Below are positions 4,633 to 63,817 of a stretch of 64,000 nucleotides of DNA, in pieces (positions within the stretch are counted from its first letter, which is position 1; each line of letters opens with the position of its first letter). Made by a program: the position numbers and the translations under genes. Under the pieces are notes generated by a model. It made no database searches. It saw only the letters and a program-made list of their open reading frames with translations, and was not told the origin of the DNA. The stretch is taken from positions 19,629-83,628 of the forward strand of contig CAOJFR010000001.1 in NCBI GenBank assembly GCA_948434855.1. The letters run 5' to 3'. The stretch is from an uncultured Clostridia bacterium (GTDB lineage Bacteria > Bacillota > Clostridia > Christensenellales > UBA1242).

Positions 4633-6543
4633 ATGAAAATTCAGTTAAGAGATGAAATAAGAGAGTTTGAAAGGGGAACAACAACTGCAGAAATTGCAGC
4701 ATCAATTTCAGAGGGGCTTTCAAGGGTTGCAGTGTGTGGAAAGGTTAATGATGAGTTAATAGACCTAAACCTTCCAATAGAAGAGGATTGCAAGCTAGAA
4801 ATAATCACAACAAAATCACCAGAATATCAAGAGGTGTTAAGGCATTCGTGTGCCCATGTTTTGGCGCAGGCGGTTAAAACTCTATATCCTAATGCAAAGT
4901 GTTGGGTTGGTCCAGCAACCAAAGATGGCTTTTATTATGACTTTGATTTCAAAACACCAATCACAAACGAAGACCTTTCAGTGATTGAAAATGAGATGAA
5001 TAAAATAATAAAGGCAAATTTTGATATTGTTCGCAAAGAGGTTTCAAAAGACGAAGCACTAATCATCATGAAAAAGGCAAAAGAAAGCTATAAGGTAGAG
5101 CTTATAGAGGCAATACCAAATGATGAAAAAATCACAACCTACACTCAGGGCGAATATACAGAAGTTTGCAGGGGTCCACACATCAAATCAACTGGCATGA
5201 TAAAGGCGTTTAAACTTACCAAAATTTCAGGAGCATATTTAAAGGGCGATAGCAAAAATAAAATGCTCACCAGAATTTATGGTGTTGTGTTTGACAAAAA
5301 GAGTGAAATGGATGAATATTTCAAAAACCTTGAAGAGGCAATGAAAAGAGACCACAGAAAGCTTGGCAGAGAGCTAGAACTGTTTTTCTTTGATGAAACC
5401 GCACCAGGCATGGCATATTGGCTTCCAAAGGGTTTCACAATGCTAAACACTCTCATTGATTTTTGGAGAGCGTTGCATAAAAAACAGGGCTATCAAGAGT
5501 TTACTGCACCACAGGTAAATTCAAGCGTGCTTTGGAGAACCTCTGGTCACTGGGATCATTACAAAGAAGATATGTTTGTGCTAACCGATGCCGATGGCAA
5601 TGAGCAAGCGCTAAAGCCAATGAGTTGTCCAAACTCAATCAAAATATATCAAACAAAGGTAAGAAGCTATAAAGACCTGCCACTCAGGTTCAATGATATT
5701 GATGTAATTCACAGAAATGAAAAATCAGGTCAGTTAAATGGCTTGTTCAGGGTAAGAATGTTCCGCCAAGATGATTCTCACAACTTTGTTCGTGCAGACC
5801 AAATTGGCAGCGAAATTAAACAGATATTAGATATAGCAAAACAAATATATAATGTATTTGGCATTCCATATGAACTAACTCTTTCAACCAGACCAAATGA
5901 CTTCATGGGTGAAATTGAAACATGGAATCAGGCAGAGTCAGAACTTAAAGATGTGCTTAACGGAATTTGCGGCGAGGGCAAATATAGAATAAACGAGGGT
6001 GACGGCGCATTCTATGGTCCAAAGATAGACATAAAAATGAAAGATTGTTTAGGAAGAGAGTGGCAAACAGGAACAATTCAGGTAGACTTCCAGCTTCCAG
6101 AAAGGTTTGATTTAACTTATGTTGATAGTGATGGCAGCAAAAAGCGACCAATTATGATTCATAGGGCAATACTTGGCTCGTTTGAAAGATTTATTGGCAT
6201 AATAACAGAGCATTTTGCAGGGGCATTCCCAGCATGGCTAAGTCCAGTTCAAGTTAAAGTTATTCCAGTTTCAGAAAAATCAAATGAATATGCAAAAGAG
6301 ATTGCAGACAAACTTGATGCACAAAACATTAGGGTTGAAACTGATAATTCAAATGAAAGAATTGGTTATAAAATCAGAACTGCTCAATTAGAAAAAGTGC
6401 CATACATGATGATTTTGGGTGAAGCCGAGGCAACAGAGGGCAAGGTATCGCTCAGAAAACGTAATGGCGAAGAAATAAAAGACCTAAGCTATAACGAAGC
6501 TCTTTCAATGATAAAGAAAGACATTGATGAAAAACAAGTTTAA
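4633..6543 (+). CDS. thrS: threonine--tRNA ligase
   Basis: RBS aaaggag precedes the ATG at 4633. The protein has a TGS-like N-terminus, an editing domain (HSCAHVLAQA), a class-II core (FRVRMFRQDDSH, GAFYGPKID) and a C-terminal anticodon-binding domain. The track start at 4573 overlaps the T-box terminator. Confidence 0.95.
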   Translation: MKIQLRDEIREFERGTTTAEIAASISEGLSRVAVCGKVNDELIDLNLPIEEDCKLEIITTKSPEYQEVLRHSCAHVLAQAVKTLYPNAKCWVGPATKDGFYYDFDFKTPITNEDLSVIENEMNKIIKANFDIVRKEVSKDEALIIMKKAKESYKVELIEAIPNDEKITTYTQGEYTEVCRGPHIKSTGMIKAFKLTKISGAYLKGDSKNKMLTRIYGVVFDKKSEMDEYFKNLEEAMKRDHRKLGRELELFFFDETAPGMAYWLPKGFTMLNTLIDFWRALHKKQGYQEFTAPQVNSSVLWRTSGHWDHYKEDMFVLTDADGNEQALKPMSCPNSIKIYQTKVRSYKDLPLRFNDIDVIHRNEKSGQLNGLFRVRMFRQDDSHNFVRADQIGSEIKQILDIAKQIYNVFGIPYELTLSTRPNDFMGEIETWNQAESELKDVLNGICGEGKYRINEGDGAFYGPKIDIKMKDCLGREWQTGTIQVDFQLPERFDLTYVDSDGSKKRPIMIHRAILGSFERFIGIITEHFAGAFPAWLSPVQVKVIPVSEKSNEYAKEIADKLDAQNIRVETDNSNERIGYKIRTAQLEKVPYMMILGEAEATEGKVSLRKRNGEEIKDLSYNEALSMIKKDIDEKQV

Positions 6544-6555
6544 AATCTTTCAACT

Positions 6556-6690
6556 TGTCATAAAAATGTTATAAACTTGTTATAAAGATGTTATAAACTT
6601 GTTATAAAGTTGTTATATTCTTGTCATAAAAATGTTATAAACTTGTTATATTTTTGTTATAAAAATGTTATATTTTTTGTTAATATGGGT
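6556..6690 (+). repeat. tandem array of 12 units with an exact 11-bp period, core TGTYATAWW
   Basis: The TG of successive units falls at 6556, 6567, 6578, 6589, 6600, 6611, 6622, 6633, 6644, 6655, 6666 and 6678. The last unit is degenerate, with 12-nt spacing. No ORF covers the array. Confidence 0.95.
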
Positions 6691-6722: not shown

Positions 6723-6751
6723 TTGACAGTAACAAATTTTTATGTTATTAT
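6723..6751 (+). promoter_or_regulatory. sigma-A type promoter for the infC-rpmI-rplT leader
   Basis: TTGACA (6723-6728), a 17-nt spacer, then TGtTATTAT as an extended -10 (6743-6751). Confidence 0.5.
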
Positions 6752-6759
6752 ACCCATGT

Positions 6760-6934
6760 TTATTGAAGAGAAAGATCACTTTCCACCAAACGAATGAAAG
6801 ATTTTGTTTGAGTTAATATAATAAAATGTTCCCAAAATATCGGCACAAAATGGGTTTAAACTGTTTTTGTGCAACATAATTTGGACTTATTATATGTGAG
6901 TGGATTTTCTTTGAAATAACCACTCATTTTTTTG
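6760..6934 (+). promoter_or_regulatory. infC operon leader ending in an attenuator terminator (L20-leader-like)
   Basis: This structured leader of about 170 nt ends in hairpin tgagtgg/ccactca (6897-6926) plus a T-run, directly before the infC RBS. The L20-leader assignment rests on position and analogy only. Confidence 0.45.
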
Positions 6935-6961
6935 AGTAAAAATAAAATTTTTAGGAGATTT

Positions 6962-9821: not shown

Positions 9822-9908
9822 TTTGCAGCTAAATTTATAAAAATACACTAAAACTAAGTGTTTTATAACATTTAATTTATAATGCTAATAAATAGTTGTT
9901 ATAAACCA

Positions 9909-9939
9909 AAGATGGTTGTCTTATTGACAACCATCTTTT
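9909..9939 (+). terminator. intrinsic terminator after yebC
   Basis: Hairpin aagatggttgtc/gacaaccatctt followed by a T-run. Confidence 0.75.
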
Positions 9940-10003
9940 ATTATATTAAAATAAATAAGGTTTAAATGTAGATATATTTTTGCATTTAAGCTGGAGAAAT
10001 TTA

Positions 10004-10210
10004 ATGAATGATAAAACAAAACTTGAACTAGCAAAGGATATAATTGCAACCTATGTTGCAAAAACAGCCAAGTTGTTAGATTTTGATTTGAATAACGATG
10101 AACTAAAAGAACTTTTATTGTTAAAAGAAGAAGTTGATAGAAATAATCTTGAAGCAATTAACTATGTTTTGGGTCTATCAGATTTAGGAGAAATAACAAA
10201 AAATGACTAA
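10004..10210 (+). CDS. small acidic helical protein, candidate antitoxin of the downstream zeta-like toxin
   Basis: The 68-aa ORF has a ggag RBS and overlaps the toxin start by 8 nt (ATGACTAA). The call is by position only. Confidence 0.45.
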   Translation: MNDKTKLELAKDIIATYVAKTAKLLDFDLNNDELKELLLLKEEVDRNNLEAINYVLGLSDLGEITKND

Positions 10211-11132
10211 AGAAGAAGTATTAAAACTATATAAAATTTCTGATGAAGAAATTAATGCCATTGCTCAAAAAGTTGAAAAACTTTATACTTATGGCAAAAG
10301 TCCAGTGGAAAATCCAACTTGTGTTATTGTTGGCGGTCAATGTGGTTCAGGAAAGAGTGGCTTAATGGCATATTCTGGTAAAATGTTTCCTGACTATAAT
10401 GTGATTTTGCTTGAAGATGATGGCTTAAGAAAATATTTTCCAAATGAAGAGCAAATTTCTCAAGAATATCCAAATGAATATATTGCAATCACAAACCAAC
10501 TTACAAATAAATTAACAAGTTATTTATTTAACAAACTTGCAAGTGAACATTATAATTTGGTTTTTCATCAAACTCTAAAAAATAATCGTATTGTTGATGA
10601 AGGCATGGAAATGCTTTTAAATAATGGGTATTATCTTATTGTTAGGGGTTTGGCAGTTTCTGAATATGAAAGCAGAATGTCAATGATTGAAAGGTGTCTT
10701 AAACAAAAAGAATTAACAGGTTATTATAGATATGTTACTGTTGATGACCATAATAACACATATAATGGGATGCCAATGACAATAGAATATATTGAAAATA
10801 GTGAAAAATATGATGTGCTTGAAATCTTTAAAAGAGGCAAAAATATTGATGAGCCTGAACTAATTTATAGAAAAGCAAAAAAGTGTGCAAGTAAATATAA
10901 TTTAAATGAAGAAGTTGTAAACTTAGGTGTGTATAATAGGGAGAAATATGCATTTAAAAGTGCAAAAGATGCCTTGCTTAATGCAAGAGAACAGGATGCC
11001 TCTTTATTTTTAGAAAATTACGATTCAAGAATGAATTCAGTTTTAAATAACAGCAACCTAACCCCAGTTTTAAGTGAACAAGCAAAAGAATTGCAAGATT
11101 TAGTTAGCAAGACAACACAATTTGGGGAATAA
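10203..11132 (+). CDS. zeta-toxin-family P-loop kinase
   Basis: It has Walker A VIVGGQCGSGKSGL (zeta/PezT: GGQPGSGKT), LLEDDGLRK (catalytic Asp region), YNLVFHQT and GYYLIVRGLAVSEYESRMSMIERC. These motifs are collinear with PezT. Confidence 0.7.
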   Translation: MTKEEVLKLYKISDEEINAIAQKVEKLYTYGKSPVENPTCVIVGGQCGSGKSGLMAYSGKMFPDYNVILLEDDGLRKYFPNEEQISQEYPNEYIAITNQLTNKLTSYLFNKLASEHYNLVFHQTLKNNRIVDEGMEMLLNNGYYLIVRGLAVSEYESRMSMIERCLKQKELTGYYRYVTVDDHNNTYNGMPMTIEYIENSEKYDVLEIFKRGKNIDEPELIYRKAKKCASKYNLNEEVVNLGVYNREKYAFKSAKDALLNAREQDASLFLENYDSRMNSVLNNSNLTPVLSEQAKELQDLVSKTTQFGE

Positions 11133-57772: not shown

Positions 57773-58018
57773 TTAATCAATATCTAAATTTTCTCTTTTA
57801 AATAAGGCATCATCAAAAAATTCTTGCAAAGTCGTTCCTAATCCATCGCAAATTTTGATGAGTGTCAAAAGATTAATGCCTTCATAAGTTTCATTCATAA
57901 TATTTCTTAAGGTTGATTCAGTTATTCCTGCGTTCTTACAAAGCTTATATTGGGTTGAAACCTTATTTTTAACCATTAAATTACTAATTCTTAGTGCTAT
58001 TGCTCTTTTTAATGTCAT
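57773..58018 (-). CDS. XRE-family HTH regulator (81 aa)
   Basis: The ATG at 58018 follows an agagg RBS. The HTH reads STQYKLCKNAGITESTLRNIMN. Confidence 0.7.
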   Translation of the reverse strand: MTLKRAIALRISNLMVKNKVSTQYKLCKNAGITESTLRNIMNETYEGINLLTLIKICDGLGTTLQEFFDDALFKRENLDID

Positions 58019-59897: not shown

Positions 59898-60098
59898 ATG
59901 GAGTTTATAGAAATATTGCAAGAGATAATGATTGAAAACAACTTAAATCAAAGCCAGCTTGCAACAATGATTGGCGTAAAGCAATCGCAGGTTAGTGAAT
60001 GGCTAAGTGGAAAAAGCAAGCCAGGTTATGATAACTTAAAGGCAATTTGCTCTGCACTTATGATAAGTGGAGATTATATTTTAGGCTTAGAGAAATAA
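59898..60098 (+). CDS. XRE-family HTH regulator (66 aa)
   Basis: The HTH reads LNQSQLATMIGVKQSQVSEWLSG. An agaggg RBS precedes it. Confidence 0.75.
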   Translation: MEFIEILQEIMIENNLNQSQLATMIGVKQSQVSEWLSGKSKPGYDNLKAICSALMISGDYILGLEK

Positions 60099-61355: not shown

Positions 61356-61386
61356 ATTTTTGGTAGAAATTCAAGGAGAAACTTTA

Positions 61387-62574
61387 ATGGATTTATTTAA
61401 AAAATGTGAAGAATTTACACTTGTTAAAGAAGTAAAAGAAAAAGGAATTTATCCATACTTTCATGTGCTAGAATCAAAGCAAGACACCGTTGTAAACATG
61501 GAAGGTGGCAGAAAGATTATGATTGGCTCAAACAACTATCAAGGCTTAACCAGCGACCCAAGAGTTATTGAGGCTTCAGTTAAGGCAACAGAAGAGTTTG
61601 GAACAGGATGTTCAGGTTCAAGGTTTTTAAACGGAACAACAACTCTTCATAACACGCTAGAAAAAGAGCTTGCCGAGTTTTTAGGTAAAGAAGATTGCGT
61701 TACAATGAGCACAGGTTTTCAAACAAATCTTGGCATAATTTCTGCAATTTGTGGCAGAAAAGACTATATTTTGTGTGATAAAGAAAATCATGCATCAATT
61801 TATGATGCCTGCAAACTTTCATATGCAACAATGGTTCGCTTCAATCACTTAGATTATGTTGATTTAGAGAAAAAGCTTGCTAGCATTCCAGAAGATGCAG
61901 GAATTTTAATTGTAACTGATGGCATTTTTTCAATGACAGGCGACATTTGTGACCTTCCAAAACTTGTTGAGTTAAAAAAGAAATATGGTGCAAGACTTAT
62001 GGTTGATGACGCGCATTGCATGGGCGTAATTGGAAAAACCGGTGCGGGTACTGCAGAATATTTTGGCTTAACAGATGAAGTTGACATAATTTCAGGAACA
62101 TTCTCTAAATCGCTTGCAAGCATTGGTGGATATTGTGCTTGTGACAGGGAAGTAGCAGAGTTTATCAGACACACTTCAAGACCATTTATTTTCAGTGCAT
62201 CAATCACACCAGCTGCGCTTGCAGCAACCTTAGAGGCACTTCATATAATAAGGTCAGAACCAGAAAGGGTTGCACACTTAACCGAAGTTGCAGAATATAT
62301 GAGAGAGTGCCTAAGGGCAAGAAACATAAAATTTGCTGATAGCAAGGCACCAATCATTGCACTTTTCACATACGAGCAGGATATTACTCTTGCAGTGTGC
62401 AAAAGATTGTTTGAAGAGGGCGTTTATGCAAACCCAGTAATGCCACCAGCAACTCCAGCAGGTCAGTGTTTGGTTAGAACAACATATACAGCCACTCACA
62501 AAAAAGAAGAGCTTGAAGAAGCAGCAGATATTATTGCAAAAGTTTTTGCAGAGTTTGGCTTAATTGAAAAATAA
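61387..62574 (+). CDS. PLP-dependent alpha-oxoamine synthase, serine-palmitoyltransferase-like subfamily
   Basis: The ATG at 61387 follows aaggag. The motifs are GSNNYQGL, GSRFLNGT, NHASIYDAC, DDAHCMG, GTFSKSLAS (PLP lysine) and PPATPAG. Confidence 0.75.
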   Translation: MDLFKKCEEFTLVKEVKEKGIYPYFHVLESKQDTVVNMEGGRKIMIGSNNYQGLTSDPRVIEASVKATEEFGTGCSGSRFLNGTTTLHNTLEKELAEFLGKEDCVTMSTGFQTNLGIISAICGRKDYILCDKENHASIYDACKLSYATMVRFNHLDYVDLEKKLASIPEDAGILIVTDGIFSMTGDICDLPKLVELKKKYGARLMVDDAHCMGVIGKTGAGTAEYFGLTDEVDIISGTFSKSLASIGGYCACDREVAEFIRHTSRPFIFSASITPAALAATLEALHIIRSEPERVAHLTEVAEYMRECLRARNIKFADSKAPIIALFTYEQDITLAVCKRLFEEGVYANPVMPPATPAGQCLVRTTYTATHKKEELEEAADIIAKVFAEFGLIEK

Positions 62575-62592
62575 ACCATAAACAAAAGTTAT

Positions 62593-62633
62593 AAAAAAAT
62601 AACATTCAATTAGTTTGAATGTTATTTTTTTTT
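62593..62633. terminator. bidirectional terminator hairpin, copy 1 of a repeated AATAACATTCA stem
   Basis: The sequence is aaaaaaataacattcaa-ttagt-ttgaatgttattttttt. Confidence 0.75.
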
Positions 62634-62738
62634 AATATTAAATTCATCAAAAATTGTTTAAATATTCCGTTTTAAATTAAACTTTCATGCTGAATGGGGC
62701 ACATTTTGTCTGCCCAATGAATCATCACAACAAATTCA

Positions 62739-63029
62739 CTAAAAATTTTTTCTTATAAAATGTGACTTGTTATGAAATTTCCTGCTAATATTTTTTAATT
62801 TATTGTCCTTTTTTATATCTTTTAAAACAAATTTAATAAGTTGTAAGCACTCACATTTGTGATATTCGCTTAGTTCATATAAAATCTTTTCAAAAAGGTC
62901 TTTTTGTTTCTTATTTAAACTGTGTTTAAGACAGCATTCATCAACAATGATTTTAGTATTTTTCATTACGCCATCATAAAACCCATCTTCTTCATAAAAA
63001 CGATAATATAATTCATTTATGTATTTCAT
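62739..63029 (-). CDS. hypothetical protein (96 aa from the ATG at 63029)
   Basis: The ORF is divergent from an XRE gene. Its start is uncertain. No motif was recognised. Confidence 0.4.
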   Translation of the reverse strand: MKYINELYYRFYEEDGFYDGVMKNTKIIVDECCLKHSLNKKQKDLFEKILYELSEYHKCECLQLIKFVLKDIKKDNKLKNISRKFHNKSHFIRKNF

Positions 63030-63032
63030 ATA

Positions 63033-63041
63033 TGTTATAAT
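63033..63041 (+). promoter_or_regulatory. extended -10 element (TGtTATAAT) facing the XRE gene
   Basis: TGTTATAAT lies on the plus strand 58 nt upstream of the ATG at 63099. It overlaps the divergent -10 and has the same core as the 11-bp array unit. Confidence 0.35.
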
Positions 63042-63065
63042 AATCTTACAATAGTAAGAAGTCAA
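63037..63065 (-). promoter_or_regulatory. candidate minus-strand promoter giving a leaderless mRNA
   Basis: Read on the minus strand: TTGACT (63065-63060), a 17-nt spacer, TATTAT (63042-63037), 7 nt, then the ATG (63029). Confidence 0.4.
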
Positions 63066-63098
63066 ATAAAATTCTTACTTTTGTGAGATAATTTTATT

Positions 63099-63311
63099 AT
63101 GAAAATAATAAATGCATTTAGCGAGAATTTAAAAATGCTTAGAGAGGAAAGAAAAATAGGGCAGGTTCAACTTGCAGAAGCCATAGGCGTAAGTAAAGGT
63201 GTTATAAGTTTATGGGAGAATGGACATAGAGAGCCAACGTTAACATCTCTTATAGCCCTTGCGAATTATTTTGATATATCACTAAATGAATTAGTTTCTT
63301 CTGAAGCATAA
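63099..63311 (+). CDS. XRE-family HTH regulator (70 aa)
   Basis: The HTH reads IGQVQLAEAIGVSKGVISLWENGHREP. Confidence 0.75.
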   Translation: MKIINAFSENLKMLREERKIGQVQLAEAIGVSKGVISLWENGHREPTLTSLIALANYFDISLNELVSSEA

Positions 63312-63356
63312 AATAAAAAGCAATAAGTCAAGTTAAAAAAATATTAAAATTAGTTA

Positions 63357-63396
63357 TAAAAAAATAACATTCATTTATTTTGAATGTTATTTTTTT
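63357..63396 (+). terminator. terminator hairpin, copy 2 of the AATAACATTCA stem
   Basis: The sequence is aaaaaaaataacattca-tttattt-tgaatgttatttttt. Its T-run runs straight into the first unit of array 2. Confidence 0.75.
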
Positions 63397-63549
63397 GTTA
63401 TAAACTTGTCATAAAGTTGTTATAAAGTTGTTATAAAGTTGTTATAAAGTTGTTATATTCTTGTTATATTTTTGTTATAAAAATGTTATAAAGATGTTAT
63501 ATTCTTGTTATATTCTTGTTATATTTTTGTTATAAAAATGTTATATAAA
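63396..63549 (+). repeat. tandem array of 14 units with an exact 11-bp period, core TGTYATAWW
   Basis: The TG of successive units falls at 63396, 63407, 63418, 63429, 63440, 63451, 63462, 63473, 63484, 63495, 63506, 63517, 63528 and 63539. It has the same orientation and unit types as the array at 6556-6690. Confidence 0.95.
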
Positions 63550-63553
63550 AGCT

Positions 63554-63817
63554 TTATTCATCGTCATCATCAAGCCCCATAGACTTATAAAAGTCGTCTA
63601 AAGATGGCTCAGCGCCGCTAAGGTCAATTTTATCTATAGGAATTTCCACAAAGCCTTTTTCGTTAGTGTTAAACTCATCAATGCAAGCGCCGCAGTTGTT
63701 GCAAATTTTGGTTGGGTCAAGGTCGCAAAGGTCGCATTCACCGCAATCGTCACACTTTTTAAATTCGTCCAAAACGCACATGCCGTTTTCATCACCATGT
63801 TTATCAAAATTTCTCAT
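63554..63817 (-). CDS. small acidic 8-cysteine protein (87 aa)
   Basis: The ATG at 63817 lies 4 nt after aaggag (aaggagaattttATG). The Cys pattern is symmetric: C-x7-C-x2-C-x2-C-x2-C-x7-C-x2-C-x2-C. The C-terminus is GLDDDDE. Confidence 0.6.
   Translation of the reverse strand: MRNFDKHGDENGMCVLDEFKKCDDCGECDLCDLDPTKICNNCGACIDEFNTNEKGFVEIPIDKIDLSGAEPSLDDFYKSMGLDDDDE

Follow-up and report, generated by a model that had tools for sequence, protein, structure and literature searches.

Two 11-bp tandem repeat arrays in an uncultured gut Clostridia species: a candidate young minisatellite family with response-regulator-like half-sites

Bacterial VNTR loci include the markers used in MLVA and the 7-bp promoter repeats of hmw in H. 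influenzae, and the STRR of cyanobacteria reach about 100 copies per genome. Natural WalR/PhoP operators hold 2–4 half-sites within the promoters of cell-wall or phosphate genes, and a winged-helix response regulator of this type is often essential. STRR are lineage-restricted short tandem repeats with 7-bp units, spread over intergenic chromosomal sites of heterocystous cyanobacteria, and their function is unknown (PMC2670836). The WalR/VicR consensus is TGTWAH-N5-TGTWAH, refined to TGTWAHA-N4-TGTWAHA, and the high-affinity site at S. mutans wapA reads TGTTAT-N5-TGTTAT (PMC4168254). R1 parC consists of two sets of five contiguous 11-bp direct repeats over about 159 bp, with one ParR dimer bound per iteron (PMC2241845). 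In BotR/TetR-type (group-5 sigma) promoters, the −10 box GTTATA requires TTTACA at −35 (PMC3610760).

Here we analyzed a stretch of 64,000 nucleotides from an uncultured Clostridia bacterium (contig CAOJFR010000001.1; hereafter the window), in which a family of 11-bp tandem repeats occupies intergenic DNA. The family is present at two or more chromosomal sites, the two arrays, termed array 1 and array 2, having been seen within approximately 80 kb of this genome.

Structure and setting of the two arrays

Array 2 comprises fourteen 11-bp units arranged head to tail over 154 bp (Table 1), as the first-pass annotation of this DNA had described. Tandem Repeats Finder (TRF) returned a period of 11, 13.7 copies, 85% matches and a score of 148 for positions 63395–63545, and motif enrichment confirmed the array. 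On recount, it holds seven copies of TGTTATAAA, five of TGTTATATT and one each of TGTCATAAA and TGTTATATA, which corrects the tally of nine, four and one given earlier. In both arrays, the unit follows the pattern TGT(T/C)ATA plus a 4-nt A/T-rich spacer. For the motif TGTTATAWW, 40 occurrences were counted across the window where 6.0 ± 2.4 would be expected; more than half of them, 22, fall inside the two arrays, all on the + strand. Periods of 33, 44 and 55 outscore the period of 11 in TRF; the higher-order periodicity of the array, at 22–55 bp, indicates multi-unit duplications. The units are contiguous and 11 bp long, whereas CRISPR repeats measure 23–50 bp and are separated by unique spacers comparable in length, so the earlier statement that this is not a CRISPR array holds.

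Table 1. Positions of the arrays and of neighboring features (window coordinates).
Feature	Position	Strand	Description or basis
Array 1	6555–6675	+	Between thrS and infC promoter; TRF
infC-rpmI-rplT promoter	6723–6751	+	TTGACA-17-TATTAT with TG; kept in L216 and L217
Solo unit TTGTTATAAAC	9896–9906	+	Intergenic, just upstream of a terminator
orf96	62739–63029	-	Species-restricted ORFan, divergent from xre70; protein search
xre70	63099–63311	+	70-aa XRE/HTH_3 regulator; Pfam; missing from the locus in relatives
Hairpin	63356–63398	.	A-run / A-U-rich stem / T-run; fold z-scores
Unit 0 ATGTTATTTTT	63384–63394	+	Hairpin 3′ arm + T-run, array-phased
Array 2	63395–63548	+	14 × (T/A)TGT(T/C)ATA + spacer AAAA/AACT/AAGT/AAGA/TTCT/TTTT; TRF, unit lists, motif enrichment
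Cys-rich gene	63554–63817	-	ORF; synteny; homologues

Array 1 belongs to the same family and has the same orientation, with 11 units followed by a degenerate one (TRF: 6552–6672, period 11, 11.0 copies). It begins 12 nt past the thrS stop codon (6541–6543) and ends 47 nt ahead of the −35 element of infC. The longest block common to the two arrays measures 32 nt (6642–6673, identical to 63515–63546), and a second copy of this block, 31 nt long, is located at 63460 in array 2. A shared sub-block had been noted before, at a length of 29 nt that our measurement replaces. Since two loci carry the same unit types in the same orientation together with this block, the view of a dispersed repeat family, rather than of one-off slippage, is upheld. 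Outside the arrays, the solo unit listed in Table 1 has the same sequence as the first unit of array 2. Solo 11-mers matching array units number 11 against 2 expected, nearly all of them within coding sequence, and we attribute this excess to codon and k-mer bias.

Across 38 units of 13 types, taken from both arrays in two strains, only one of the seven core positions varies, and the other six (TGT.ATA) never change. Variation is confined to the T/C position and the 4-nt spacer, both within arrays and between alleles, and the spacer is always AAAA, AACT, AAGT, AAGA, TTCT or TTTT among these units. Under uniform mutation, such invariance has a probability of P = 2e-4 if a minimum spanning tree of unit types is taken to give 14 events; with seven events and a comparison of core against spacer the value is P = 0.011, and under a minimal occupancy model it is P = 0.56. 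The pattern hints that the unit core may be under constraint, a reading of the sequences that depends on the model and on the number of independent events assumed.

The window is chromosomal, carrying thrS, infC-rpmI-rplT, a SigF/G-type sigma factor gene, the SSB gene and similar genes. GC skew is positive throughout, and the + strand is therefore the leading strand across the window. Array 2 is situated in the convergent gap between xre70 (+) and the Cys-rich gene (-), and 4 nt separate its end from the TTA stop codon (63554–63556) of the latter, the distance that had been reported. The product of the Cys-rich gene is very acidic, with 87 aa and 8 Cys; related gut Clostridia contain 72 homologues of it at E ≤ 1e-10, and it has no match in Pfam, PHROG or NCBIfam.

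At its other end, array 2 adjoins a hairpin whose RNA fold is more stable than that of shuffled sequence (+ strand, z = −5.3; - strand, z = −4.2). A simple GC-requiring terminator scan did not call this hairpin, because its stem is almost entirely A-U. It is probably a bidirectional terminator serving xre70 on the + strand and the Cys-rich gene on the - strand. The array had been said to start within the T-run of the hairpin, and this was borne out: unit 0 lies in phase with array 2 as a fifteenth unit and doubles as the hairpin's 3′ arm and T-run. A regular unit, ATGTTATAAAC, takes its place in strain L203. Because array 2 sits between the stop codon of the Cys-rich gene and the only hairpin, we infer that it is transcribed as the 3′UTR of that gene.

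The hairpin and array 2 form part of a species-specific insertion of approximately 980 bp (62575–63553), which also contains orf96 and xre70 and which replaces the GC-rich bidirectional terminator of all relatives. This aminotransferase/Cys-rich gap is a hotspot in relatives, where it contains a variety of unrelated genes. The search with orf96 recovered only 4 near-identical proteins among 5.8 billion and no family match; a mobile-cassette origin was rejected on account of the status of orf96 as a species-restricted ORFan. XRE was also considered as the binder of the arrays and rejected, as the palindrome in its own promoter region is a different one (TCTTAC-N4-GTAAGA) and there is no XRE gene beside array 1.

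Several further features of these neighborhoods were recorded. Two additional small XRE/HTH_3 genes are located within the same 6-kb neighborhood as array 2 (59898–60098 and 57773–57985), the former occupying the ssb-orf406 gap, a space of no more than about 100 bp in relatives; in this species, small HTH genes have thus apparently entered intergenic gaps by insertion more than once. The class I/II aminotransferase encoded at 61360–62574 scores best against serine palmitoyltransferase models, not BioF/Kbl, and reaches 517 bits against NF047600, under the 640-bit cut-off. It is always paired with a divergent 375–406-aa protein bearing a zinc-ribbon-like motif, which may point to sphingolipid-type chemistry in a Clostridia lineage. 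Near array 1, the infC 5′ leader (GTTTATTGAAGAGAAAGAnCACTTTCCACCAAnCGAATGAAAGATTTTG..., window 6752–6960) is conserved in the sister species L216 and L217. Even with the threshold relaxed to E ≤ 1, Rfam gave no match to this leader, which may represent an autoregulatory leader of the L20/IF3 type not described before. A zeta-toxin-family gene lies at window positions 9980–11132 (PF06414 in the public annotation of L205), with an ORF of 68–76 aa ahead of it. The two are a probable epsilon/zeta-type toxin-antitoxin pair, approximately 3.3 kb downstream of array 1.

Distribution among relatives and variation within the species

Among one-per-species representatives, the genomes closest to this organism are MAGs with 81–90% protein identity. 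In relatives, the gene order pda-ssb-orf406-aminotransferase-Cys-rich gene is kept, and the aminotransferase/Cys-rich gap either spans approximately 60–230 bp with a bidirectional terminator or holds unrelated inserted genes. None of the array, xre70 and orf96 was found in this gap in nine genomes at 81–85% protein identity, and all three were likewise missing from the array 2 site in lineages whose Cys-rich protein is 92% and 83% identical. The thrS-infC gap of L216 and L217 contains no array and retains the promoter and the conserved leader; in L215, where the locus is rearranged, there is also no array between thrS and infC. Arrays with an 11-bp period and at least four copies numbered 0 in 843 kb of relatives' DNA, as against two in the 64-kb window. 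Four consecutive TGTTATAWW units were found in 4 of 185,579 species representatives, with no relative of this organism among them.

Other A/T-rich genomes commonly contain homogeneous 11-bp A/T-rich satellites, so a repeat of this length arises readily, and 11 bp may be a favored satellite period in such genomes. Homogeneous TGTTATA-containing 11-bp A/T-rich tandem repeats were observed on giant-virus or large-phage contigs from lakes and oceans (L415, L420, L422, L423, L426, L430, L432 and L436). Degenerate four-unit matches in metagenomes and viral contigs were set aside as homogeneous A/T-rich 11-bp satellites with other units, a different family. A census of three TGTTATA copies in 11-bp phase was discarded as too permissive and self-selecting, since it gave unrelated satellites and CRISPR-like repeats from many phyla. 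Unrelated Bacteroidales MAGs (L004, L037, L041, L049, L098 and L101) carry four tandem palindromic TGTTATAACA decamers with an 11-bp period, for example TGTTATAACAATGTTATAACGCTGTTATAACAATGTTATAACG; this repeat looks like a conserved operator-type element. In a more distant Clostridia MAG, L132, a 13-bp/39-bp tandem array of ATTTTACAATATA with 13 copies lies near the aminotransferase locus (9890–10117). A BLAST search with the array found nothing similar among plasmids and phages, an outcome to which the low-complexity filter may have contributed.

Within the species, more than 15 samples yielded contigs with both loci, their flanks being 96.9–100% identical to the window. Arrays 1 and 2 were present in every same-species contig recovered, including those of strains about 3% diverged. 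As far as the sampled genomes show, the family arose after the species split from its closest sampled relatives and is fixed in all sampled strains.

Array 2 is represented by three complete and two partial alleles, with 13–14 units. The 14-unit form is found in the window and in L192, and a 13-unit form with altered unit order in L193 and L200/L466 (two samples); in the third complete allele (L203), conversion has turned unit 0 into a regular unit. The partial alleles are those of L194/L462/L467/L468 and L197/L464, one of which recurs in three samples. Array 1 has three alleles, with 11- and 12-unit forms. Differences between strains consist of the gain or loss of single units and of the swap of one unit type for another. 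The first unit and the last four (approximately 43 nt) are constant among complete array 2 alleles, as are the first three and last seven units among array 1 alleles. In a unit-level alignment, the arrays carry 1.5–5.4 times more events per nucleotide than their flanks; they are polymorphic, not wildly unstable. The arrays thus share the defining features of VNTR loci, namely contiguous tandem units whose number and order vary between strains within conserved flanks. A neutral minisatellite had been expected, in the first-pass annotation, to vary freely in length and to lack conservation anywhere. Array length does vary between strains, but only by approximately one unit in either direction rather than freely, and conservation does not extend beyond one species, yet both arrays are fixed within it.

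Many contigs terminate inside the arrays, and one of 57,188 bp runs exactly from array 1 to array 2; the arrays explain why short-read assemblies of this species fragment at these points. A separate repeat was also observed in the same species, approximately 8 kb left of the window, where an element of about 180 bp (ATCAAAACCAGCCTAAAGTCAGGCTGGTTTTTCATCTTAATCCCAGACGGACAAA...) is tandemly duplicated (L442, 1–230). Three independent assemblies break at this ATCAAAACCAGCCTAAAGTCAGGCTGGTTTTTCATCTTAATCCCAGACGGACAAA element, which belongs to a family distinct from the 11-bp arrays. No third array occurs in the 5.8 kb right of the window, and the left breakpoint of three contigs is the repeat of about 180 bp.

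Candidate explanations for the arrays

The explanation we favor, and to which we assign a little less than an even chance, is that of a young, species-restricted 11-bp minisatellite family driven by slippage and recombination, with array 2 grown from a terminator and with only passive effects. Units would multiply and be exchanged through slipped-strand mispairing and through unequal recombination or gene conversion. Array 2 would have grown outward from the TGTTAT and T-run of the terminator of xre70 and the Cys-rich gene, and a block of several units, copied ectopically, would have founded the second locus and would account for the 32 nt that the arrays have in common. Among the passive effects, the 3′UTR of the Cys-rich gene would be about 150 nt longer, the ancestral GC-rich terminator of that gene would have given way to a weaker A-U hairpin, and thrS would have been moved approximately 130 bp farther from the infC promoter. 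The array would have no dedicated promoter function, and any protein occupying its WalR-like half-sites would be a by-product, not the reason why the array exists. Three observations count against the minisatellite. The invariance of TGT.ATA across all 38 units hints at constraint; a range of one unit together with universal occupancy is steadier than a freely drifting satellite would be, although assembly bias against longer alleles could contribute; and dispersal to two unrelated loci must be assumed with no terminal repeats or target duplications visible.

The best functional rival to the minisatellite is a protein-binding platform, in line with the iterons suggested in the first-pass annotation and in our view appreciably less likely than the minisatellite. 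The arrays would serve as phased head-to-tail half-sites for a winged-helix response regulator of the OmpR/PhoB family (WalR/VicR/PhoP-like), as a candidate high-capacity sink or nucleoprotein patch. About seven dimers could line one helix face along array 2, which would form a roadblock or insulator separating convergent genes, and array 1 would modulate the adjacent infC promoter. At the level of sequence, TGTTATA-N4-TGTTATA is an exact fit to TGTWAHA-N4-TGTWAHA, the one core position that varies (T/C) falls on the degenerate W of the consensus, and the core is fixed where the spacer varies. With C at this position, the unit gives the PhoB box core CTGTCATA (PMC4168254), and the clostridial response regulator CBO0786 of C. 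botulinum footprints TATGTTATATGTTATATGTAA, a direct repeat of TGTTATA (PMC3610760). Consensus dimers number 19, overlapping, in the arrays against about one expected across the window; the 11-bp phasing, the fixation in the species and the narrow copy-number range are also compatible with a binding platform. However, elsewhere in the window there is only one isolated consensus dimer, the chance level, and the window ORFs tested include no OmpR-family regulator and yielded no binder of the array. All relatives are without arrays at both loci, and any binding role would therefore be a very recent innovation. Natural operators have 2–4 half-sites in cell-wall or phosphate gene promoters, as opposed to the 11–14 seen here and the convergent gap in which array 2 lies; thus the operator sequence TGTWAH-N5-TGTWAH is present, whereas placement in a regulon promoter and conservation in related species are not. 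The motif match was made post hoc, after several families had been considered, and the constraint statistic is model-dependent. A narrower proposal is that rows of 11–14 perfectly phased half-sites, which arose de novo at several chromosomal sites in this one species, have been kept by selection as high-capacity sponges or nucleoprotein patches for a winged-helix response regulator, that is, as a natural titration array. We hold this to be rather unlikely, and we know of no titration array so far described for a bacterial two-component regulator. If a WalR/PhoB-type regulator does bind here, the arrays would rank among the few natural cases of a decoy or titration array of recent origin and would offer a direct way to study the buffering of response-regulator availability.

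The first-pass annotation had raised the reading of the units as extended −10 promoters, which would fire rightward; array 2 would then yield transcripts antisense to the Cys-rich gene, and array 1 would boost infC. We regard this as quite improbable. Its formal elements do exist: each unit carries TG and, after one intervening base, a hexamer matching TATAAT at five of six positions (TATAAA or TATATT, for instance), the five TGTTATATT units of array 2 retain A-11 and T-7, both arrays are oriented alike, and array 1 is aimed at infC. T-7 is nevertheless limited to these five of the 14 units, the remaining nine having A at −7 (TATAAA, TATATA, CATAAA) and one of them also being without T at −12, so that the units as a set depart from an extended −10 element. 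The invariant position is the n of TGn (the third T of TGT) and the variable ones are −12 and −8/−7, the opposite of a −10 information profile. No −35 element at 16–18 bp and no predicted + strand promoter was found inside either array, and TTTACA 16–18 bp upstream of GTTATA has zero matches in the window, which separates the units from BotR/TetR/TcdR promoters. As to downstream transcription units, array 2 points into the 3′ end of a gene convergent with it, and infC has a strong promoter of its own, kept in sister species lacking the array. The promoter and antisense roles are accordingly not supported. Bent DNA, also offered in the first-pass annotation, proved a weak alternative. Here, phased A/T tracts would create a curved or easily melted segment acting as a UP-like element or topological insulator, which we judge very improbable. 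The 11-bp period is near the helical repeat and the spacers are A- or T-tracts (AAAA, TTTT); the end-to-end/contour ratio of the arrays, predicted from wedge parameters, is 0.84–0.87, equal to only the 4th–8th percentile of the window. Far stronger curvature is predicted for numerous ordinary segments of the window, with ratios down to 0.58, and curvature would need no invariant TGT.ATA core; in addition, array 2 serves no promoter. By analogy with R1 parC, whose unit length and overall size are close to those of array 2 (11 bp; 154 bp), the arrays might be centromere-like, their 11-bp iterons coated by a ribbon-helix-helix (RHH) ParR-like adaptor for segregation or as the relic of an integrated element, a prospect we consider extremely slight. 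The repeats are contiguous as in parC, but no parM/parR-like or RHH gene lies beside either array, and there is no adjacent parM/parR operon on a plasmid or prophage. The context is one of chromosomal housekeeping genes (thrS, infC, ribosomal proteins), no plasmid or phage record is similar, and orf96 is an ORFan with no family match. A function at the RNA level was rejected: relative to the transcripts that contain them, one array would be read in the sense opposite to the other, and this speaks against a role in RNA common to both. The minus-strand RNA of the array is without structure (z = −0.28), and Rfam gave no match at the gathering threshold in the window and none of relevance at E ≤ 1 around either array.

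As a minisatellite family, the arrays would be chiefly of practical use, as a marker for typing strains of this uncultured gut species. The array 2 locus also illustrates the speed at which an intergenic terminator region can be remodeled, with a GC-rich terminator giving way to an array, an A-U hairpin and two new small genes.

Comparison with described systems

The arrays resemble R1 parC in having contiguous 11-bp direct repeats over approximately 150 bp in helical phase. They differ in that parC flanks the parMR promoter on a plasmid, whereas the arrays are chromosomal, have no par genes and consist of an unrelated iteron sequence.

With the operators of WalR/VicR and PhoB/PhoP, the arrays share a 6–7-bp core, direct repetition, 11-bp spacing and an A/T-rich spacer. 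The known sites have 2–4 half-sites, lie in regulon promoters and are conserved across species, whereas the arrays have 11–14, lie outside regulon promoters and are species-specific. The CBO0786 operator and the BotR/TetR −10 box are similar in that the heptamer (T)GTTATA occurs as a direct repeat (PMC3610760). Those sites consist of two copies with 7-bp spacing in toxin promoters with a TTTACA −35 element, in contrast to the 14 copies with 11-bp spacing and no −35 element found here.

Bacterial VNTR loci are alike in their spacerless head-to-tail units, intergenic position, strain-variable unit number and order, conserved flanks and tendency to break short-read assemblies. Unlike them, the present arrays show heterogeneity mainly in the spacer, occupy at least two unrelated loci, vary over a range of about one unit and evidently control no phase-variable gene. 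STRR, finally, are likewise a lineage-restricted family of short tandem repeats at dispersed intergenic sites, from which the family described here differs in its 11-bp unit, its Clostridia host and the two arrays seen within about 80 kb. Dispersed short tandem-repeat families are thus already known, and by this analogy the 11-bp family would add another.
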